NCBI GenBank assembly: GCA_018223415.1
Contig: JAGTTQ010000001.1
Coordinates: 2,557,498 to 2,621,497, forward strand
Direction: 5' to 3'
Source: Eubacteriaceae bacterium Marseille-Q4139
Lineage (GTDB): Bacteria > Bacillota > Clostridia > Lachnospirales > Lachnospiraceae
DNA: 64,000 bases
Shown: piece by piece, positions 1,990 through 46,067 of the stretch
Numbering within the stretch: position 1 is the first letter of the stretch
How the letters are laid out: each line of letters starts with the position of its first letter
The notes under the pieces: model-generated
Database searches by the model: none
What the model was told of the DNA's origin: nothing
What the model saw: only the letters and a program-made list of their open reading frames with translations
Position numbers and translations under genes: made by a program

Positions 1990-2247
1990 GACAAAAGGTT
2001 CGCATATGGGCAGCAGACGGGACAATGTCTGCTGCCCTTTCCTGCGTGAGGGGCTGTGCCCTGGCCTGAGTGTGCACCAGATGCACAATTTTTTTGCGTA
2101 AAATGAGCTGTCTGACACAATTGTTTGATTTTTACGGATAACTGTAAATATTATACAAAAATGATGTAAAATGTCGAAAAACAATAAAAAAGACTGGTAA
2201 ACGCTGAAAAGTCTGTTAAAATCGTGTTGAAAGGAGGTACTTCAAAA

Positions 2248-3054
2248 ATGAATATGGACAAGTTTGAGCAGTATCTAAGGGGGACGAATCTCTCGGAGAA
2301 CACGATTGCTTCATACAGCTTTGCAGTGAAGCAGTATTATCGCCAGTACGATACGGTTACAAAAAGGAAGCTGCGGGAATACAAGGTTTGGCTCATCGAG
2401 AATTACAAGCCAAAAACTGTAAACCTGCGGCTTCGTGCATTGAACTGTTATCTGGAAAGTATTGGGAGAGATGAGTGGAAAATGCAGTTTGTGAAAGTAC
2501 AGCAGAAGGCGTTTCTGGAGAATGTCATCAGCGAAGCGGACTATGAATACTTCAAAACGTGTCTGTGGCAGGACGGAGAGCAGTTCTGGTATTTCGTTGT
2601 CCGTTTCATGGCGGCTACGGGCGTGCGGGTCAGCGAGCTGATACAGATCAAGGCGGAGCATGTGAATACAGGCTATGTGGATCTGTATTCCAAAGGGGGC
2701 AAGCTCCGAAGGATCTACATACCGCAGGCGCTGAGGGAGGAGGCCCTTGCCTGGCTGGAGGAGAAAGGCCAGACAAGCGGTTTCCTCTTTTTGAATAAGC
2801 AGGGCAAGCGGATTACCACCAGGGGGATTGCCGGGCAGTTAAAGGTTCTGGCACAGCGGTACGGCCTGGATACGGCCGTGATTTATCCCCACTCCTTTAG
2901 ACATCGGTTTGCAAAGAGTTTTCTGGAGCGGTTTAATGACATCGCGCTGCTCGCGGATCTCATGGGGCATGAGAGCATCGAGACGACGCGGATCTATCTG
3001 AGACGGACGAGTACGGAACAGCAGGCCATCGTTGACCATGTGGTGAGCTGGTAG
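2248..3054 (+). CDS. tyrosine site-specific recombinase (XerC/D / phage-integrase family), solitary
   Basis: C-terminal catalytic HSFRHRFA...LMGHESIETTRIYL (R-H-R-Y) motifs; RBS AAAGGAGG upstream of the ATG at 2248. Confidence 0.8.
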   Translation: MNMDKFEQYLRGTNLSENTIASYSFAVKQYYRQYDTVTKRKLREYKVWLIENYKPKTVNLRLRALNCYLESIGRDEWKMQFVKVQQKAFLENVISEADYEYFKTCLWQDGEQFWYFVVRFMAATGVRVSELIQIKAEHVNTGYVDLYSKGGKLRRIYIPQALREEALAWLEEKGQTSGFLFLNKQGKRITTRGIAGQLKVLAQRYGLDTAVIYPHSFRHRFAKSFLERFNDIALLADLMGHESIETTRIYLRRTSTEQQAIVDHVVSW

Positions 3055-3236: not shown

Positions 3237-5042
3237 ATGGAGACAGACAGTATGGCGGATGAAGAGAACGTAAAGGAAAAAAAGACAAAGGCTCAGCCCG
3301 AGGACAATATCGAAAGGCTGAAAAAGATAAAGAAGAAAAAAGAGCTCGGAAATTATCCCAAGTATCTGGCAGCGGCAGGAGCCGCTATTGTGGTGGTTTC
3401 GGCTGTGGCCGTGATCGGGACGCTAATCGGAAAAAGCGCCGGCGGGGCCGGGACAATAAAGGTAGAAACCGTGGCCGCGTCCCTTGAGACGACGGCGCCG
3501 GTGGAGACGGAGCCCTCAGAGCCACAGACCATCGTGCTGGAGACGACCCTTTCGGAGGAAGAGATCCAGGAGAAGGAGCAGGAGGCAGCCGTGAAGTCCG
3601 TCCTGGACGGATATGCCAATCTGGGTATCGCCGGCGTGTCCGGCTACCTGAATGTGCGGAAGACGCCGGAGGCCTTCGGCGAGGTGATCGGGAAGCTGCC
3701 GGCTGGCGGTGCATGTGAGATCATCGACACGTCGACGGAGGGCTGGTACAAAATTTCTTCCGGCGGCGTTACCGGCTATGTCAGCTCCCAGTATATTTAC
3801 ACGGGAGACCAGGCGAAGGAAAAGGCGGCCGAAGATGTGAAGGAGCGGGCCATCGTGGAGGTGGACAAGTTAAATGTCCGTTCGGAACCGAGCCAGGAGG
3901 CCGAAATCGTCGGCCAGGTTTTAAAAAACGAGCGGTACGAGATCCGCGGGGAAGAGGAAGGCTGGATCCAGATTGCGGACGGCTATATCTCCTCGGATTA
4001 CGTGGAAATCCGCTATGCCTTAAACGAAGCGCAGAAACAGGATATGAGGACGACCGTCTTCAATCTTTATGATAATCTCGGCGTGTCCAACGTGACGAAT
4101 TACCTGAATATCCGGAACAAGCCGAGCGAGTCGGACGGAAAGATTATCGGAAAGCTCCCGAGCAATGCAGGCTGCGATATTCTGGAGACTTCCGAGGACG
4201 GCTGGTACAAGATCCGTTCCGGGAAGATCACCGGGTACGTGAAGTCGGAGTACATCCTGACCGGCCAGGCCGCAAAGGACAAGGCTCTTGAGGTGGCAGA
4301 GCTGATGGCCATCGCCAACACCGACGGCGTCAACGTCCGTTCCGAACCGAATACGGAGTCCAGTATCTGGACGCAGATCTCCAATACCGAGAAGTTCCTG
4401 GTAGTGAGCCAGATGGACGGATGGGTGGAAATCGAGATCGATGACAGCAATGCATTTATCTCCTCGGATTACGTGGATGTGCAGTATGCGTTAAACGAGG
4501 CGATCCCCTATACGCCGGTGGTTGAGCAGACAAAGAGCACGGGCGGAAGCTCCGGTTCGTCGGGCAGCAAGGGCAGCTCTTCCTCAAGCGGCGGCAGCAG
4601 CTCCTCCGGCGGAAAGACGAGCGGCGGCTCTTCCTCCTCCGGACAGAGCGCAGGCTCCAGCGCAGGAAGCGTGTCCTCGACGCGTGCCCAGATTGCCAAC
4701 TATGCCGTACAGTTCGTGGGCAACCCGTATGTATGGGGCGGAACCAGCCTGACAAACGGTGCGGACTGCTCCGGATTTACCATGTCCGTCATGGCGCACT
4801 TTGGCATCTCCCTGCCGCATAACTCGGCGGCGCAGGCCAACTGCGGACGGAGTATCTCCTCCAGTGAGATGAGGCCGGGCGACCTGATCTTCTACGGCGG
4901 CAGCAGCGGTTCCATCAACCACGTTGCCCTCTATATCGGAAACGGGCAGGTATGCCACGCGTCCAGTGCGAAGACAGGAATTAAGATTTCCACATGGAAT
5001 TACAGAAGCCCAGTGAAGATCGTCAATGTGTTAGGTGACTAA
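3237..5042 (+). CDS. cell-wall endopeptidase: N-terminal TM anchor, four SH3b domains, Gly/Ser linker, C-terminal NlpC/P60 domain
   Basis: NlpC/P60 catalytic region YVWGG...DCSGF...HVALYIG; four ~60-aa SH3b repeats (LNVR..GWY/GWV); TM helix near residue 45. Confidence 0.88.
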   Translation: METDSMADEENVKEKKTKAQPEDNIERLKKIKKKKELGNYPKYLAAAGAAIVVVSAVAVIGTLIGKSAGGAGTIKVETVAASLETTAPVETEPSEPQTIVLETTLSEEEIQEKEQEAAVKSVLDGYANLGIAGVSGYLNVRKTPEAFGEVIGKLPAGGACEIIDTSTEGWYKISSGGVTGYVSSQYIYTGDQAKEKAAEDVKERAIVEVDKLNVRSEPSQEAEIVGQVLKNERYEIRGEEEGWIQIADGYISSDYVEIRYALNEAQKQDMRTTVFNLYDNLGVSNVTNYLNIRNKPSESDGKIIGKLPSNAGCDILETSEDGWYKIRSGKITGYVKSEYILTGQAAKDKALEVAELMAIANTDGVNVRSEPNTESSIWTQISNTEKFLVVSQMDGWVEIEIDDSNAFISSDYVDVQYALNEAIPYTPVVEQTKSTGGSSGSSGSKGSSSSSGGSSSSGGKTSGGSSSSGQSAGSSAGSVSSTRAQIANYAVQFVGNPYVWGGTSLTNGADCSGFTMSVMAHFGISLPHNSAAQANCGRSISSSEMRPGDLIFYGGSSGSINHVALYIGNGQVCHASSAKTGIKISTWNYRSPVKIVNVLGD

Positions 5043-5046
5043 AAAA

Positions 5047-5082
5047 GACAGGCTCTGCCGCTTCCGGCAGAGCCTGTTTGCA
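5047..5082. terminator. intrinsic terminator: 12-bp perfect stem (CAGGCTCTGCCG/CGGCAGAGCCTG), 4-nt loop, weak T tract
   Basis: hairpin read directly from the sequence, immediately after the stop at 5042. Confidence 0.5.
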
Positions 5083-5108
5083 CGTTTTGGCCGTTGTCCC
5101 ATATGATA
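5082..5108 (+). promoter_or_regulatory. sigmaK-type (mother-cell, late sporulation) promoter candidate: AC, 16 bp, CATATGATA
   Basis: matches the B. subtilis sigmaK consensus AC-N16/17-CATANNNTA; sits ~40 nt upstream of the Cys-rich ORF. Confidence 0.35.
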
Positions 5109-5148
5109 TAGTACAAACTTAATTTTGTATGAAAAAGGAGCAATCAGT

Positions 5149-5670
5149 ATGGGTATCTGCTGTCGTAATAATTGGTGTTTTAACAGATGTGGCTGCTGCC
5201 GGAACAATAACAATAATTCCTGCTGTACTTCTCTGGCGGATACGTCCGCTGCCTGCGGGAACGGGTGCGATCCCTGCGGTTCGGGAAACAGTGTTTCTCA
5301 GGCGTCGGGAAGCGGCTGCGGCTGCGGCTCTTCCCAGTCGGGCTGCGGTTCCTCAAGATGCGGCTGTAATTCCTCCCGGTGGAATTCCTGCTGGCCGAAC
5401 GGCTGCAATTCCTGCGGCACATGGGGAAACCGCTGCTGCCGGTGCGGGAACTGGGGCTGGGGCTGGAACTGGAATAACTGTTCCTGCGGGAATTCCTGGT
5501 GGAACACGGCGTACAACAGGGGCTTTCGGGCAGGAAGCAGTGCCGGCTACAACAGCGGTTACAGCGGCGGCTACAATGCCGGCTACGGTGTCGGCTATCA
5601 GGTTGGCTGTCAGAACTGCTCGGCCGCCGGAACTGCTGTCATCTCCGGAGGCTGCGGCACCTGCGGGTGA
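5149..5670 (+). CDS. 173-aa low-complexity Cys/Gly/Asn/Trp/Tyr-rich protein; putative spore coat or exosporium structural protein
   Basis: RBS AAAGGAG 8 nt upstream of the ATG; genome-typical codon usage; ~17% Cys (CC, CGC, CxC repeats), WGWGWNW stretch, C-terminal GYN/GYS repeats; terminator-like hairpin follows. Confidence 0.6.
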   Translation: MGICCRNNWCFNRCGCCRNNNNNSCCTSLADTSAACGNGCDPCGSGNSVSQASGSGCGCGSSQSGCGSSRCGCNSSRWNSCWPNGCNSCGTWGNRCCRCGNWGWGWNWNNCSCGNSWWNTAYNRGFRAGSSAGYNSGYSGGYNAGYGVGYQVGCQNCSAAGTAVISGGCGTCG

Positions 5671-5768
5671 TGAAGAAAAATCAGGCTGCGCTTAGGGAAA
5701 CGGCTTTTATAACAGCCGCGCCCGGCTCGGTGTGCGGGAGCGCGCTTGCAGATTTTTTAAAAAAGGGA

Positions 5769-5797: not shown

Positions 5798-5814
5798 ATG
5801 TAGCATAACGAGAA

Positions 5815-5889
5815 GGTTCCTGTGACTGACGGGAAGGTGGGCAAAAACCACCAGGGAGCAGGAATCCATAATATGCCGACCGTCTGGGC
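5815..5889 (+). ncRNA. ZTP (ZMP/ZTP-sensing, pfl-motif) riboswitch aptamer
   Basis: GUGACUGACGGG..GGUGGGCAAAAACCACCAGGGAGC..(linker)..CCGACCGUCUGGGCA matches the pfl consensus (UGACUGGCG / GGUGGGAAACCACCGGGGAGC / CCGNCCGCCUGGGCA); pseudoknot pair GACGG/CCGUC covaries; lies upstream of pflB. Confidence 0.8.
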
Positions 5890-5925
5890 AGTACCGCAAA
5901 CGCTGCGGTGCTGCCCTTCTTTTAT
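5885..5925 (+). terminator. riboswitch expression-platform terminator overlapping the ZTP P3 3' strand
   Basis: GGGCAGUACCGCA-AACG-CUGCGGUGCUGCCC followed by UUCUUUUAUU. Confidence 0.6.
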
Positions 5926-6019: not shown

Positions 6020-8248
6020 ATGAAAGCATGGGAAAACTTTAAGGCCGGCCATTGGATGGAGGCCATCGACGTCCGCGATTTTATCCAGAAAAACTATACG
6101 CCGTATGACGGCGGGGAGGAATTCCTCGCAGGCCCGACGGAGAGGACGAAAAAGGTGCTGGACACCTTTGAAGCCCTCTTAAAGAAAGAGCGGGAAAACG
6201 GCGGCGTTTTAAAGGCTGATACGAAAACCGTCATCACTCCGACGGCGTTCGGCCCCGGCTATCTGGACAGGGAACGCGACATCATCGTGGGCCTCCAGAC
6301 TGATGAGCCCTTAAAGAGAGCCTGCAATCCCTTCGGCGGCATGCGGATGGTGCGGGAGGCATGTGAAGAGTACGGATACCAGGTGGATGAAGAGCTGGAG
6401 ACCGAGTTCCGGTACCATAAGACCCACAACGACGGCGTTTTTTCTGTTTATACGCCGGAAATCCGGGCGGCAAGGAGCGCCGGGATGATTACGGGCCTTC
6501 CGGACGCCTACGGGCGCGGCCGGATCATCGGCGATTACAGGCGCGTGGCCCTTTACGGCATGGACCGGCTGATTGAGGAACGGGAAAAGGACCGTCTTGC
6601 CATTGGAAAACGGCGCATGAGCGAGGAGACGATCCGGCTTTTGGAGGAGCTTCACGATCAGATCGAGGCGTTAAAGTCGATGAAGGAGATGGCAGCCCTC
6701 TACGGCTATGACATTTCCGGGCCGGCAGAGACGGCCAAGGAGGCCGTGCAGTGGCTTTATTTCGGGTATCTTGCGGCCATCAAGGAGCAGAACGGCGCGG
6801 CCATGAGCCTGGGGCGCACCAGCACTTTCTTAGATATCTATTTTGAGCGGGATTTAAAGGCCGGCCGGCTCACGGAGGAGGAAGCCCAGGAGATCATGGA
6901 TGATTTCGTTTTAAAGCTCCGCCTTGCAAGGCACCTTCGGACGCCCCAGTACAACGAGCTGTTCGGCGGCGACCCCATGTGGATTACCGAAGCCATCGGC
7001 GGCGTCGGCGAGGACGGCCGCCACATGGTGACGAAGACCTCGTTCCGGATCCTGCATACGCTTTATAACTTAAAGCCGTCGGCAGAGCCGAATCTGACGG
7101 TGCTCTGGTCGGATAAGCTCCCGGAGAGTTGGAAGCAGTACGTGGCGAAGGTGTCCTGCGACACAGATTCCATCCAGTATGAAAACGACGATGTCATGCG
7201 GCCCCATTATGGCGACGACTACGCCATCGCCTGCTGCGTTTCCGCCATGCGGGTAGGGAAGGACATGCAGTTTTTCGGCGCCAGGGCGAACCTTGCAAAG
7301 CTGGTGCTCCTTTCCATCAACGGCGGACGTGATGAGAATAAAAACATCCAGGTGGGGCCTGAAATGCCTGTCTGGGAGGACGAATACCTGGACTATGACC
7401 GGCTCATGGAGCGGATGGATGTCTACCGGGACTGGCTGGCGGCCACTTACGCGGACACGATGAACATCATCCACTACATGCATGACAAATACGCATACGA
7501 AAAATGCCAGATGGCGCTCCATGACCCGGAGGTGAGACGGCTCATGGCCTTCGGCGTGGCCGGCATGAGCTGTATGGCGGATTCGCTTTCGGCCATAAAA
7601 TATGCGAAGGTGCGCTGTGTCAGGAACAAGGAGACGGGGCTTGTGACGGAGTTTGAGATCGAGGGCGAATATCCGGCCTTCGGAAACGATGATGACCGGG
7701 TGGATGCCATCGCCTGCGAGCAGATGAAGAAGTTCTATGAGTCCTTAAAGAAAAATGAGCTGTACCGCGGTGCTGTCCATACGCTGTCGGTACTGACGAT
7801 TACTTCCAATGTTATGTACGGGAAAAAGACCGGAAGCACGCCGGACGGAAGAAAGAAGGGCGAGCCGTTAGCGCCGGGCGCAAACCCCATGTCGGGGCGG
7901 GATCGGAGCGGCGCCCTTGCTTCCTTAAATTCGGTGGCAAAGCTGTCTTATGATACGTGCCGGGACGGGATCTCCAACACGTTCTCCATTGTGCCGGATG
8001 CTCTTGGGAAATCCGAAAAAGAGCGGCTTTCCAACCTGGTGCAGATTTTAGAAGGGTATTTCGGACAGGGCGCCCACCACTTAAATGTCAATGTGATGAA
8101 CCGGGAGACGCTTCTTGATGCCTATGAGAATCCCGACAAGTACCCGAACCTGACGATCCGCGTTTCGGGCTATGCCGTGAATTTTTATAAGCTTTCCAGG
8201 GAGCAGCAGCGGGAGGTCATCCGCAGAACCTTCCATACCGGCGTATAA
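6020..8248 (+). CDS. pflB: pyruvate formate-lyase (formate C-acetyltransferase), glycyl-radical enzyme
   Basis: N-terminal [44 protein letters not shown]-terminal glycyl-radical motif RVSGYAV. Confidence 0.97.
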
Positions 8249-8961
8249 TGGAAGCGGCGAAGGTTTGCGGGCGCGTCCACTCGGTGCAGAGCCTGGGGGC
8301 CGTGGACGGGCCGGGAATGAGAAGCGTCGTGTTCCTTCAGGGCTGCCCGCTCCGGTGCGCCTACTGCCATAATCCCGATACCTGGGAATTTTCGGAGGGC
8401 ACGAGGACGGAGGCCGGCGAGGTTTTTTCGCGGCTTCTGCGGTTTGCCCCATACTGGAAGCGGGGCGGCGGCGTGACCGTGTCCGGCGGGGAGCCGCTCT
8501 CCCAGCCGGAGTTTGTGAAGGCCCTGTTTTCCATGCTCCATGAACGCGGGATCCATACGGCCCTTGATACGTCGGGGGCCGGGGATCTTCTGGCGGCGCG
8601 TGAGGTTTTAAAGGAGACGGACCTTGTCCTGGCGGATGTGAAATTCCTGTCGGAGGGGGAGTATAAAAGCTTCTGCCATGGAAGCTTTGAAAAGACGAAG
8701 GCGTTTCTTTCGCTGACGGCGGAGCTTGGAATCCCTCTGTGGATCCGTCACGTGGCAGTGCCGGGGCTTACGGCAAACGAGGCATATCTTCGGGCTGTGA
8801 AAGAGTTTGCCGGCTCCCTGCCGAACCTTGAGCGGCTGGAGTTTCTTCCTTTCCATAATATGTGCGTGGAAAAGTATGAGCGCCTCGGGATTCCCTTCCC
8901 CTTAGCCGGGACAGAGCCCATGGAAGCGGCAGAGTGGCAGGCACTTTTGGAAAAAATTTAA
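8248..8961 (+). CDS. pflA: pyruvate formate-lyase activating enzyme (radical SAM)
   Basis: CPLRCAYCHNPDTW radical-SAM cluster motif; start overlaps the pflB stop (TAATG). Confidence 0.95.
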   Translation: MEAAKVCGRVHSVQSLGAVDGPGMRSVVFLQGCPLRCAYCHNPDTWEFSEGTRTEAGEVFSRLLRFAPYWKRGGGVTVSGGEPLSQPEFVKALFSMLHERGIHTALDTSGAGDLLAAREVLKETDLVLADVKFLSEGEYKSFCHGSFEKTKAFLSLTAELGIPLWIRHVAVPGLTANEAYLRAVKEFAGSLPNLERLEFLPFHNMCVEKYERLGIPFPLAGTEPMEAAEWQALLEKI

Positions 8962-14619: not shown

Positions 14620-14907
14620 ATGACAATGAATTGTTGCAGCAATTCCGGCAGTGATGTGAGAAGAATGGTCATGCAGCCGGGGCTCTGCCGGCCGGCCGGA
14701 GGGCCGGGGCCAGTTGTGCCCGGCGGTTCGCCCGCAGGCCAGCAGGGGTCACAGATGCCTGGTTCTTACAGCCGTTTTCCGGTTGGAATGGGGTACGTCC
14801 CGATGCAGAATTGGGAAACACCGTATCCTCTGGCAACCGCTTTTTCCAGGGGGACAATTTTCCCGTCCCTTGATTATCCGTTTATGAGAGCGAGGTGCAG
14901 GGCATGA
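14620..14907 (+). CDS. cotJA: spore coat-associated protein CotJA
   Basis: conserved YVPMQ...LATAF..GTIFPSLDYPF signature; RBS AAAGGAG; CATACCTTA (CATA-type mother-cell -10 element) 28 nt upstream. Confidence 0.85.
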   Translation: MTMNCCSNSGSDVRRMVMQPGLCRPAGGPGPVVPGGSPAGQQGSQMPGSYSRFPVGMGYVPMQNWETPYPLATAFSRGTIFPSLDYPFMRARCRA

Positions 14908-15203
14908 TGGGCGGCATGAATCAGAACATGAATTCCGGGCAGTGCAGTGCGCCGCCGCTTACAAAAGCGCAGCTTATGAAGCAGATCAATGAAGCCAGCT
15001 TTGCGATGGACGACGTTCTCCTGTTCCTCGATACGCATCCGGATAATGCAGAGGCGCTCCAGTATTATAAGACGGTCACGGCCATGAGAAAAGACGCCAT
15101 GGATGCCTACCAGAGCCAGTTCGGGCCGCTGATGGTGGACAGTGTGACGGGCAGCACCTGGGACTGGGTGACAGAAAAATGGCCGTGGGAAGGAGGATGC
15201 TGA
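14895..15203 (+). CDS. cotJB: spore coat protein CotJB
   Basis: CotJB family (DDVLLFLDTHPDN...WDWV..WPWE); overlaps the cotJA end. Confidence 0.85.
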   Translation: MQGMMGGMNQNMNSGQCSAPPLTKAQLMKQINEASFAMDDVLLFLDTHPDNAEALQYYKTVTAMRKDAMDAYQSQFGPLMVDSVTGSTWDWVTEKWPWEGGC

Positions 15204-15204
15204 T

Positions 15205-15840
15205 ATGTGGAGATATGAAAAGCGGCTGCAGTATCCGGTAAATATTAAGGAGCCGAATGCGAAGATTGCGAAGTATATTATGAGCCAGTACGGCGGGCCC
15301 GACGGCGAGATCGGCGCCTCCATGCGCTACCTCTCCCAGCGCTACGCGATGCCCTACGGCGAGCAGAAGGCGGTGCTTACGGACATCGGAACCGAGGAGC
15401 TGGCGCACCTGGAAATCGTGGCAGCCATCGTCCATCAGCTTACTCGCAATTTATCCGCCGAGGAGCTGGATGCCCAGGGCTTCGGTGACTATTATATTGA
15501 CCATACGGTAGGAATCTGGCCGCAGGCGGCGGGCGGCGTTCCCTTTAACGCAAACCAGTTCCAGTCGAAGGGGGATCCCATCACGGATCTGTTTGAGGAT
15601 TTGGCGGCCGAGCAGAAAGCCCGCACGACATACGACAACATCCTGCGTGTCGTAAAAGATCCCGACGTCTGCGACCCGATCCGCTTCTTGAGGAAACGGG
15701 AAATCATCCATTTCCAGCGTTTCGGTGAAGCACTCCGCGGACTTCAGGACCGGCTTGACAGCAGGAATTTCTACGCGTTCAACCCGAGCTTCGACAAAGG
15801 GCCGGCAATGCAGCCGAGACAGGGAGGCTGCTGCCAGTAA
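15205..15840 (+). CDS. cotJC: spore coat protein CotJC (manganese-catalase family)
   Basis: Mn-catalase-like motifs (EIGASMRYLSQRY, EELAHLEIVAAIV). Confidence 0.9.
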   Translation: MWRYEKRLQYPVNIKEPNAKIAKYIMSQYGGPDGEIGASMRYLSQRYAMPYGEQKAVLTDIGTEELAHLEIVAAIVHQLTRNLSAEELDAQGFGDYYIDHTVGIWPQAAGGVPFNANQFQSKGDPITDLFEDLAAEQKARTTYDNILRVVKDPDVCDPIRFLRKREIIHFQRFGEALRGLQDRLDSRNFYAFNPSFDKGPAMQPRQGGCCQ

Positions 15841-44549: not shown

Positions 44550-46067
44550 TCAGGATTCGCTTCCGGCAGGACGGTGAAAGAAAAGCAGCATGAGCCCGTA
44601 GCAGGTACAGACAATCAGGATGCGGAGGCAGGTGCCGAAAAATTCGGGAAGGCCGGAGGCAAAGAGAAACGAATCAGGAAAAATGCGGTAAATCCCTAGA
44701 GCCACGGCCAGGCAGAACACAGGCTTCACGATGACTTCCCAGGCGTTGGCGGAAAAGCCGACGGCTTCTCTTAAGGCCAGGATATGTAAGAGCGCCAGAA
44801 GGAGCTCACTTGCCAGCATCCCCCACAGGTATGCCAGGATGCCGATTTTCGGGATTCCGATTACGATGAAGCAGAGCCTGAAAAGCAGGGCGGCCAGATG
44901 ATGAAGGAAGGTTGTGGTTGTCTTCCCGAGGCCGTTTAAGATGCTTCCCATGGTGGTGGAAAGGTAGAGGAACGGACAGAGCCAGGCAAGGATTGTGATG
45001 AAGCTTCCTGCTTCCTCATTTTTAAAGACCTGGACGCCGAGGCTGTCCCCGAAGATGGTGAAAATGCCGACGCAGAGGATGCCCATGTAGAGGCTGTACC
45101 GGAAGGACATGGCGATGCGCCTGGTGATTTCGCGGCTGTCGCCGCCTGCCTGTGCCCTGGCAACAGAAGGAAGCAGGACGACGGCCAGGGAATTGACGAT
45201 GGCCGAGGGAAACATGATAAAGGACATGGCCATGCCGTTTAGGACGCCGAGCGTGCTGACCGCCTGGGACTGGCTTAAGCCGAAGGCAGCCAGCCGGTTG
45301 GGGATCAGGATGGATTCGGCGCTCCTTAAAAGATTCATGACGAGCCGGTTTGCCATGAGCGGCAGGGCCAGCGCCATGAGAGGAATGGCGATGGAAGCCA
45401 TGGAGGGGGCGTGGGGATCCGGCCGGGTATCGCCATCCTTTTCCAGTAAAAGAAAGGTCAGGAGCGTGAACAGGGCAGAACCGGCTTCGCCGATAAGAAG
45501 GCCGGCGGCCGCCAGGGAGACGGTGATTTCGATGCCCTTTTCCCGGCAGATGTCAGCGAGAAGGAAGACGGCAAACATCCGGATTCCCTGCTCGGCTAAC
45601 TGGGAGAAGGCCGGGATCTGCACTTTTTCTTTTCCATAATAATATCCGCAGATACAGGAGTGGAGGGCAGAACAGGGGATTGCCAGTGCAAAAGCAGGAA
45701 GCAAAGGAGCGCAGCGCGGTTCCATGAGCACATGGACGGCGAGGAAGCCGGAAAAACGCCAGATCAGTGCCGCCAGGAAAATCGCCATGGAGAAAGAGAT
45801 GGCAAAGCCGGTGAAAAGCGTCTTTTTGGCCCTGGAAGGACATGCGGCCGTGAAGCGGGAGATGGCCGTCTGGAGGGAACCGGCGCATAGAGAGAGGCAG
45901 ATCCCGTAAACGGGAAACATCATCTGATAAATCCCGAGCCCCTCGGCGCCGATGGCGCGGGAGAGGAAAATTTTATAGAAAAATCCGAGGATCCTGGAGA
46001 GAAAGCCTGCGGCGGTAAGAAGGACTGCGCCGGCGATCAGGGTATGCTTCTTAAAAAAATCAGTCAT
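44550..46067 (-). CDS. spoVB: SpoVB-type polysaccharide/lipid-II flippase (MOP superfamily), stage V sporulation protein B-like
   Basis: ~14-TM protein with SpoVB/MurJ-like N-terminus (FLSRILGFFYKIFLSRAIGAEGLGIYQM). Confidence 0.75.
   Translation of the reverse strand: MTDFFKKHTLIAGAVLLTAAGFLSRILGFFYKIFLSRAIGAEGLGIYQMMFPVYGICLSLCAGSLQTAISRFTAACPSRAKKTLFTGFAISFSMAIFLAALIWRFSGFLAVHVLMEPRCAPLLPAFALAIPCSALHSCICGYYYGKEKVQIPAFSQLAEQGIRMFAVFLLADICREKGIEITVSLAAAGLLIGEAGSALFTLLTFLLLEKDGDTRPDPHAPSMASIAIPLMALALPLMANRLVMNLLRSAESILIPNRLAAFGLSQSQAVSTLGVLNGMAMSFIMFPSAIVNSLAVVLLPSVARAQAGGDSREITRRIAMSFRYSLYMGILCVGIFTIFGDSLGVQVFKNEEAGSFITILAWLCPFLYLSTTMGSILNGLGKTTTTFLHHLAALLFRLCFIVIGIPKIGILAYLWGMLASELLLALLHILALREAVGFSANAWEVIVKPVFCLAVALGIYRIFPDSFLFASGLPEFFGTCLRILIVCTCYGLMLLFFHRPAGSES

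Follow-up and report, generated by a model that had tools for sequence, protein, structure and literature searches.

What is encoded by the repetitive, cysteine-dense segment at positions 5048-5760 of a 64,000-nucleotide stretch of Eubacteriaceae bacterium Marseille-Q4139 (contig JAGTTQ010000001.1, positions 2,557,498 to 2,621,497; this whole stretch is called the window below), and in which cell and at which moment would the product be made? The analysis of this segment and of its relatives indicates that it almost certainly carries a real gene, read in a frame which encodes a Cys-rich protein (the Cys frame). This gene is probably a mother-cell sporulation gene and, with a likelihood that we place slightly above even, its product is a late mother-cell, disulfide-crosslinking structural protein of the spore coat or exosporium. 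An earlier note on this DNA had proposed an undescribed structural protein. The first part of this proposal agrees with our searches, in which no described family was matched, whereas the structural role is deduced from the regulation, the composition and the gene neighbourhood. The acting sigma factor, the timing of expression, the destination of the protein, its assembly and its crosslinking are likewise predictions made from sequence.

Translated frame, protein and family

About 60 related loci were gathered from the genomes of Lachnospiraceae and from metagenomes of the gut (Alitiscatomonas, Copromonas, Hungatella). A search with the protein of the upstream SH3/NlpC-P60 gene (3237-5042) yielded 16 loci in Lachnospiraceae genomes, including Alitiscatomonas aceti, metagenome-assembled genomes (MAGs) of Copromonas, and Clostridium fessum. 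In nine of these 16 loci (L002-L009 and L016), a Cys-rich open reading frame (ORF) was found directly 3' of the NlpC/P60 gene when tblastn was run without low-complexity masking, and profile searches contributed two further loci (L018 and L019). Across all 12 loci obtained by synteny or protein searches, the Cys frame is the sole frame open from start to stop. The ratio of nonsynonymous to synonymous changes (pN/pS) in this frame was 0.06-0.21 for close pairs, and the window and L002, which are less closely related, gave 0.48; between L005 and L006, 8, 4 and 41 differences fall at codon positions 1, 2 and 3, respectively. In the window, the Cys frame has a G+C content at third codon positions (GC3) of 0.71 and a synonymous-codon score of 0.16, to be compared with averages of 0.69 and 0.25 ± 0.06 for the window genes. 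The purifying selection, the kept ribosome-binding site (RBS) and start, and the codon usage together argue for translation of the Cys-rich frame. The translation, the AGGAG and the codon score also confirm the earlier description of a 173-residue ORF at 5149-5670 with a good RBS and genome-typical codons.

That the segment is not a gene in the Cys frame, and that the Ala-rich ORF at 5129-5695, an antisense ORF or non-coding repeat DNA is what matters here, is hardly credible. The Ala-rich ORF is longer (188 residues), several orthologues have no exact match in a collection of 15 billion proteins, and one metagenome variant, L001, is frameshifted. However, the Ala-rich ORF is devoid of an RBS, as the earlier note had observed, and its codon usage is also atypical (GC3 of 0.38, synonymous-codon score of -0.47). 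The shadow ORFs overlapping the family genes are found in different frames and with different extents at the various loci, Rfam matched no RNA at the Cys-rich ORF, and it is the Cys frame that combines a pN/pS far below 1 with a conserved RBS and ATG. L001 itself, a 98%-identical metagenome contig, differs from the window by an in-frame 9-bp deletion and by a substitution patch with four changed codons, three of them synonymous when read in the Cys frame; its frameshift results from an 8-bp deletion within a GCGGCT x3 repeat. The features of the gene and of its immediate surroundings are the following:

5149-5670, plus strand: coding sequence of the 173-residue Cys/Gly/Asn/Ser/Trp-rich protein, stop codon included (translation, pN/pS, codon usage)
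5136-5140, plus strand: RBS AGGAG, 8 nt before the ATG; AGGAG lies 6-9 nt upstream of the Cys-frame ATG in every orthologous locus
5080-5083, plus strand: -35 element GCAC (sigma-K-type AC at 5082-5083); (G/T)CAC or ACAC is kept in the 12 loci obtained without use of the promoter
5100-5108, plus strand: -10 element CATATGATA, fitting CATAnnnTA (sigma-K/sigma-E type) and separated from the AC by 16 nt; invariant or CATA(T/G)(G/A)ATA across loci
5109-5118, plus strand: box TAGTACAAAC directly 3' of the -10 element, kept as wAGTAyArAC in all loci; predicted start-site region, which may also be a regulator site
5048-5077, no strand assigned: GC-rich 13-bp hairpin, terminator-like, directly after the SH3/NlpC-P60 gene and between that gene and the promoter
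5733-5760, plus strand: terminator-like hairpin and T-run after the coding sequence, weakly supported, with a folding no better than that of shuffled sequences (z = -0.74)
5149-5220, plus strand: M-x-(x)-C-C-R-N-N-x-C, the motif at the N-terminus of the family proteins, then clusters of Cys and a run of Asn (residues 1-24; alignments)
5312-5329, plus strand: GCGGCT x3 microrepeat, encoding GCGCG; site of the L001 8-bp deletion and frameshift
5452-5472, plus strand: WGWGWNW stretch, residues 102-108 (CTGGGG microrepeat; translation and repeat scan)
5503-5616, plus strand: GX3 block, residues 119-156, NTAYNRGFRAGSSAGYNSGYSGGYNAGYGVGYQVGCQN; the only segment conserved in the whole family, with invariant G-Y-x-x-G columns
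5605-5667, plus strand: C-terminal tail, in which the motif GCQNCS and a linker of Ala, Gly and Thr precede the Cys pair of the terminal GGCGTCG (alignments)

The Cys-rich gene appears to be a monocistronic unit, bordered upstream by the 5048-5077 hairpin and downstream by a ZTP riboswitch and pflB, which form a separate unit. In L001 the stem of the upstream hairpin is unchanged, and the four bases at the centre of the loop are replaced by their reverse complement (CTTC versus GAAG), a small loop inversion between strains.

The encoded protein (MGICCRNNWCFNRCGCC...GGCGTCG) has a molecular mass of 17.7 kDa and an isoelectric point of 8.4. Four residues make up 65% of it: Gly (35, 20.2%), Cys (28, 16.2%), Asn (25, 14.5%) and Ser (25, 14.5%). 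Trp is abundant (10 residues, 5.8%), Phe accounts for 1.2%, and Glu, His and Lys are absent. With 15.5-16.2%, the Cys content is the highest among the 484 window ORFs of at least 40 residues (mean 2.8%, standard deviation 2.4%) and exceeds their mean by more than 5 standard deviations; the value of about 17% given earlier is slightly too high, the exact figure being 16.2%. The CC and CxC clusters and the WGWGWNW stretch described in the earlier note are present, with four CC, five CxC and six CxxC motifs in total. Its description of the protein as Tyr-rich holds for the GYxx repeats, in which G[YF] occurs at every fourth residue between positions 125 and 150, and not for the whole protein, whose six Tyr (3.5%) are confined to residues 122-150. 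The idea of a dityrosine crosslinking is weakened accordingly. No hydrophobic segment, N-terminal or internal, was detected (maximum Kyte-Doolittle value of 0.76 over 19 residues), and the protein is thus predicted to be devoid of signal peptide and membrane segment. Its reading as a secreted protein was judged weak.

The family members are 84-255 residues long and the complete ones contain 11-22% Cys, truncated contig-end fragments reaching 34%. Their organization includes four elements: an N-terminal M-x-C-C-(R/N)-N-N-x-C motif (observed starts are MGICCRNN, MSSCRNNC, MCCCNNRCN and MACNRNNWC), a hypervariable Cys/Gly/Asn repeat arm (for instance CGCRNNSCW, CCCGSGNGSGNN or poly-N), a [YF]RxG[YF]xAG[YF]NxGYxxG[YF] core, which is the sole block kept family-wide, and a short tail bearing Cys, in which GC(Q/R)NCS is kept within the window-type clade. 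Short-period repeats are found in the window ORF at 5312-5329 (GCGGCT x3), 5451-5466 (CTGGGG x2.7) and 5541-5597 (a 12-nt unit x4.8). The length variation that the earlier note had expected from such repeats is observed between near-identical loci, both as in-frame differences (8, 9 or 10 residues in poly-N; 212 versus 219 and 115 versus 124 residues) and as frameshifts. The latter were found in two of the approximately 60 loci, L001 and L042, in both cases inside microrepeats (after GCGNN in L042), and could be assembly errors, pseudogenes or a slippage-based on/off variation.

No described family accommodates the protein. At E ≤ 10, Pfam-A returned only Yae1_N (PF09811) at 15.5 bits, below its 27.5-bit cutoff, and neither a spore-coat family (CotY/CotZ/ExsY, CotJA/B, CotF, CotH and others) nor a metallothionein family was matched in this search. 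NCBIfam gave only FliH models (E = 2e-4 to 5e-3, 16-21 bits against cutoffs of 180-293 bits), PHROGs and PDB sequence searches matched no family beyond sub-threshold hits to the GX3 block, and phmmer searches of 1.84 billion representatives and 5.8 billion clusters did not reveal any full-length relative outside the new family. The phmmer searches and the index of 5.8 billion proteins mostly returned unrelated GYxxGY-repeat proteins, word index and bias filters coping poorly with such a composition. Several relatives carry precomputed PF09811 matches. A homology with Yae1_N or FliH was nevertheless rejected: the scores are far under the curated cutoffs, the rest of the protein is unrelated and the motif recurs in many unrelated proteins, so that only a motif resemblance is left. 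On the basis of these searches, the protein represents a new sequence family, whose architecture is its own and which has a dedicated extended promoter. Long G[YF]xx arrays were also seen in many unrelated large proteins (P0002, P0003, P0028 and others), some of which look like phage structural proteins, and the GX3 motif is present in the uncharacterised PHROG phrog_4785; it gives misleading matches for any query bearing it.

The homology search suggested in the earlier note recovered a widespread Lachnospiraceae family, and the gene is not unique to the window genome. The members already deposited bear no other name than hypothetical or uncharacterised protein (WP_147335907.1 / A0A174ISC5, MCI8453685.1 and proteins of Hungatella sp. 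MAGs). WP_147335907.1 / A0A174ISC5, labelled Hungatella hathewayi, is present on 716 contigs. Cultured carriers are Alitiscatomonas aceti (f_CCE, L004) and a Hungatella isolate (WP_147335907.1). For 16 of 19 orthologue or family queries and for the window ORF, the exact sequence was absent from the 15-billion-protein collection, the contigs themselves being public. A similarity search of genome contigs with the Cys-rich protein gave no match although L002 holds an orthologue; low-complexity masking is the likely cause, since unmasked tblastn (-seg no) revealed L002. The family may therefore be under-called by standard pipelines.

Promoter block and link to cotJ

The 110 nt upstream of the ATG were aligned for the 12 loci found without use of the promoter. 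A near-invariant block, tGCAC..TTTt.......tCc CATATgATA tAGTACAAACcT, was highlighted between flanks that could not be aligned. The AC and the -10 element are separated by a spacer of 16-17 nt, and the distance from the end of the -10 element to the ATG is 32-40 nt (40 nt in the window). In eight representative species, the block GCAC-N16/17-CATAnnATA-wAGTAyAAAC is near-invariant while the proteins are only 33-60% identical, and it is kept with a fixed geometry in about 60 loci.

The sigma-K-type promoter announced by the earlier note 40 nt upstream of the gene is present, and it proved to be a conserved footprint common to cotJ operons. The AC, the 16-nt spacer and CATATGATA are correctly placed 5' of the gene. 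Within the window, the bare sigma-K motif was found twice for 2.6 expected occurrences; since such matches are not above chance, the significance of the promoter rests on its conservation between species. According to Saujet et al. (PMC3789822), sigma-K and sigma-E promoters have similar -10 elements and differ by their -35 element, AC for sigma-K and ATA for sigma-E, and CATATAAT with an AC is given as a sigma-K promoter. The block is most likely of the sigma-K type (-35 AC, -10 CATA..TA) rather than of the sigma-E type, as judged from these elements.

The block was also used as a probe. A scan of metagenomes with the pattern GCAC-N15-17-CATANRATAWAGTAYARAC yielded 52 loci, and in about 46 of them a Cys-rich family ORF starts 21-28 nt downstream. 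In four others (L030, L034, L038 and L041) the block, AGTACAGAC box included, precedes cotJA-cotJB-cotJC; one locus is ambiguous. The promoter of these four cotJ operons (in L041 at 3118-3080, minus strand) has the extended form GCAC-N16-CATATGATA-AAGTACAGAC, as in the Cys-rich family. A relaxed scan of all the DNA gathered, for AC-N16/17-CATAnnnTA with an RBS and an ORF of 60 residues or more, gave nothing beyond 26 distinct ORFs of the family, three cotJA genes, a single intragenic match and, in L063, a single call in the wrong frame of a family gene. Most family genes outside the clade of the window are located 0.3-3.4 kb from cotJABC, either divergent to it (L019, L065, L021, L040 and L063) or co-oriented behind nrdD (for example L053); in the window, cotJABC lies 9 kb downstream of the Cys-rich gene. 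In C. difficile, CD1067 and CD1581 correspond to cdeC and cdeM, respectively. The sigK regulon of this organism includes cotJ-like operons as well as CD1067 and CD1581 (PMC3789822). A mother-cell sporulation gene is the probable identity of the Cys-rich gene.

Some further observations were made at the cotJ loci. The wAGTAyArAC box after the -10 element is common to the cotJ and Cys-rich gene sets. It loosely resembles the B. subtilis SpoIIID consensus (WWRRACAR-Y), with one mismatch, and this likeness is taken as a lead only. CotJA proteins, too, begin with short and variable low-complexity segments in which Cys occurs: the CotJA of the window starts with MTMNCCSNSG, like the M-x-CC-x-N-N of the family, and that of L041 with MQNYKGCGN..CECGS. 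In L053, the cotJA ORF (6234-7421, 395 residues as listed from the first in-frame TTG) comprises about 300 residues of PEMPMGRG-type repeats before the CotJA domain. In L063, a large serine recombinase gene (102-1556) adjoins cotJC and recalls the recombinases of sporulation-excised elements.

Predicted role and competing explanations

If the protein is a structural component of the spore envelope, the following sequence of events can be proposed. Transcription would start near 5114-5117, after recognition of GCAC-N16-CATATGATA by RNA polymerase with the sigma factor of the mother cell, sigma-K being the most likely one. The AGGAG and ATG at 5136 and 5149 would then direct the translation of a leaderless 17.7-kDa protein late in the mother cell. 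Because it has no leader peptide, this protein would be synthesised in the cytoplasm of the mother cell and deposited straight on the surface of the forming spore. The GX3 ('GYxxGYxx') segment is a probable glycine-zipper helical hairpin that would drive self-association, the protein would polymerise in the outer spore layers, and intermolecular disulfides contributed by the Cys-rich arms would lock the polymer. Spore envelopes are generally built by Cys-rich proteins that self-assemble and are stabilised by disulfides (bioRxiv 10.64898/2026.09.03.749163), a convergent strategy described for CotY/ExsY, CsxA/CsxC and CdeC which the Cys-rich protein would follow. Neither CdeC nor CdeM is reported from Lachnospiraceae, where both are described as absent (PMC6101409), which leaves a Cys-rich envelope role unfilled in this family of bacteria; the Cys-rich protein may take there the role played elsewhere by the unrelated CotY/ExsY, CdeC/CdeM and CsxA.

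The neighbouring genes and elements of the window are the following:

3237-5042: SH3/NlpC-P60 gene, upstream neighbour
5812-5896: ZMP/ZTP (pfl-motif) riboswitch, 62.3 bits
5886-5916: terminator hairpin, the intrinsic terminator of the riboswitch expression platform
6020-8248 and 8248-8961: pflB and pflA (radical S-adenosylmethionine, or radical-SAM, activase), behind the ZTP riboswitch
14620-14907, 14895-15203 and 15205-15840: cotJA, cotJB and cotJC
44550-46067, minus strand: SpoVB-like gene (TIGR02900, 303 bits, below the 372-bit cutoff)

The sporulation context described in the earlier note was thus found for cotJABC and, below the cutoff, for the SpoVB-like gene. Hydrolases are present in the window as well (SH3 with NlpC/P60, SH3 with Amidase_3, and M23), with no mark of sporulation specificity. 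The order NlpC/P60, Cys-rich gene, SH3/Amidase_3 is kept in the window-type clade; in the Hungatella-type and other clades this neighbourhood is lost, and the Cys-rich gene stands by cotJ or nrdD. A pflBA unit is inserted between the Cys-rich and SH3/Amidase_3 genes in the window, L002 and L058, these two genes being adjacent in other species. A tyrosine recombinase gene of the 'phage integrase' family (2224-3054) is located between DUF1177 and the NlpC/P60 gene, and it occupies the same position, with 84-92% identity, in L020, L023, L029, L058 and L067. This conserved position suggests a resident gene of the Xer-like kind rather than the trace of a mobile element.

Several observations weigh against a structural coat or exosporium protein. 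AlphaFold2, run with a shallow alignment, gave a predicted local distance difference test (pLDDT) of 33.7 and no confident fold. A helix-turn-helix over residues 116-158 (the GX3 block) is the only helical and the main modelled element; as this model is uninformative, self-assembly through the GX3 block is a conjecture. The GX3 motif is also widespread in unrelated proteins, phage ones included, and the dense set of CC, CxC and CxxC motifs is compatible with metal binding too. The -10 elements of sigma-E and sigma-K are nearly the same, and the assignment to sigma-K hangs on a -35 element of 2-4 nt. Nothing marks the hydrolases of the window as sporulation-specific, and the flanking ones are not demonstrably sporulation genes. 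In related species (L010-L015), no Cys-rich gene is found at the syntenic position, and the frameshifts of L001 and L042 may mean that the gene is dispensable in some strains, unless they are assembly errors. Finally, no mention of the deposited family accessions was found in the literature.

The metal-binding potential of the Cys motifs leads to an unlikely alternative, namely a sporulation-expressed metal-thiolate protein (metallothionein-like, or a metal or iron-sulfur store) loading or buffering Zn, Cu, Mn or Fe in the mother cell or the coat and possibly tied to the CotJC Mn-catalase. The 16% Cys arranged as CC, CxC and CxxC and the recurrence of the gene beside cotJABC, whose CotJC is a Mn-catalase, are compatible with it. 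So is the weak Pfam match, as the GX3 motif also occurs in Yae1/Lto1, which are iron-sulfur delivery adaptors. However, metallothioneins are Cys-rich proteins in which the spacing of Cys is conserved and aromatic residues are practically absent, whereas the window protein contains 5.8% Trp, 3.5% Tyr and 1.2% Phe and is devoid of His. Moreover, the number and spacing of Cys vary greatly between orthologues, which argues against a defined metal cluster. A non-structural mother-cell protein, acting as a morphogenetic adaptor or as a modulator of the flanking SH3 hydrolases (NlpC/P60 and Amidase_3) in cortex remodelling or mother-cell lysis, is quite unlikely. The gene order of the window-type clade would suit such a function, but the hydrolase synteny is confined to that one clade. 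The N-terminal hydrophobic segment of the NlpC/P60 protein, read from its translation, suggests export whereas the Cys-rich protein has no signal peptide, and hypervariable low-complexity arms would be unusual in a specific enzyme regulator.

Vegetative expression from a sigma-A or other promoter, for instance of a stress or redox buffer, would make the CATA-type motif a coincidence or a regulator site. In line with this explanation, bare sigma-K motifs are no commoner in the window than expected. It is however improbable in view of a -35/spacer/-10 block with the same geometry in about 60 loci and otherwise only at cotJ operons, and of the position of the sole sigma-70-like site of the region, which falls inside the coding sequence. 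The small size and Cys content of the protein, together with a radical-SAM gene 2.6 kb downstream (8248-8961), could also evoke a precursor of a ribosomally synthesised and post-translationally modified peptide (RiPP), ranthipeptide/SCIFF-like or bacteriocin, whose Cys would be modified by this neighbouring enzyme. This is very improbable: the radical-SAM gene directly follows pflB behind the ZTP/pfl riboswitch and is on that account the pyruvate formate-lyase (PFL) activase, pflBA is absent from the syntenic loci other than L002 and L058, and no maturase, protease or exporter is conserved beside the family. Proteins of 84-255 residues with hypervariable repeats are, in addition, unlike RiPP precursors.

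A broader proposal can be attached to the structural coat or exosporium protein. In the abundant Lachnospiraceae of the gut, the family could stand in for CotY/ExsY, CdeC and CsxA and form the main disulfide-crosslinked matrix at the spore surface, with surface variants made by slippage and a co-regulation with cotJ. We regard this proposal as speculative and rather unlikely. If it were true, the slippage-prone microrepeats (GCGGCT, poly-AAC/AAT and the 12-nt GY units) would generate strain-level length variants and occasional frameshifted, off variants, and the spore surfaces would be diversified under host-immune or phage pressure. The co-regulation with cotJ would proceed via an extended sigma-K promoter with an additional regulator box, wAGTAyAAAC.

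Whatever its exact function, the family should concern spore biologists and microbiome researchers. Spore formation drives the transmission of many dominant gut commensals and the make-up of the Lachnospiraceae spore coat is essentially unknown. The analysis provides a recognisable promoter-plus-gene module, cultured carriers, and a candidate with a promoter signature for studies of spore-surface assembly. The family is also an example of low-complexity genes escaping annotation: it has no Pfam or NCBIfam model, masking defeats standard tblastn, and gene callers may often skip or miscall its members. At the protein level, a product free of Lys and so dense in Cys would escape standard tryptic proteomics.

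Comparison with known systems

The family is new in sequence but not categorically new, since it probably falls within a known functional class, that of the Cys-rich late-sporulation envelope proteins. Among its closest counterparts in design are CdeC and CdeM of the C. difficile exosporium, which are likewise Cys-rich, leaderless and lineage-restricted, with a proposed disulfide crosslinking. CdeC is however a protein of 405 residues with 9% Cys (PMC6101409), to be compared with 84-255 residues and 11-22% Cys in the family, and neither CdeC nor CdeM contains a GX3 block or Asn/Gly microrepeats. No similarity between CdeC/CdeM and the Cys-rich protein was detected in the phmmer database searches, no direct pairwise comparison having been run. 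The comparison with CotG/CotB-like proteins made in the earlier note is a loose one.

CotY, CotZ and ExsY of the Bacillus crust and exosporium basal layer, and the SPOCS-domain proteins CsxA and CsxC of Clostridium sporogenes, are also Cys-rich, and their self-assembly in the spore envelope is stabilised by cooperative disulfides (bioRxiv 10.64898/2026.09.03.749163). These proteins have defined folds and form two- or three-dimensional crystals, whereas the protein studied here is of low complexity, is modelled with a very low pLDDT and matches no Pfam spore-coat family. Yae1-Lto1 (Yae1_N, PF09811) and FliH/YscL share with the GX3 block a Gly at every fourth residue over about 30-40 residues, modelled as helical; outside this block, the Cys-rich protein is unrelated to them. 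Metallothioneins resemble it by their high Cys content, their CC/CxC/CxxC spacing, their small size and their low complexity, and differ from it in that its Trp, Tyr and Phe are abundant and its Cys positions poorly conserved. Mammalian keratin-associated proteins of the high-sulfur and high-glycine/tyrosine classes are small, low-complexity proteins which combine Cys-rich repeats with Gly-Tyr repeats, harden a material made of protein by means of disulfides and display repeat-number polymorphism. They are eukaryotic and evolutionarily unrelated to the family, and the resemblance is an analogy of material design only.

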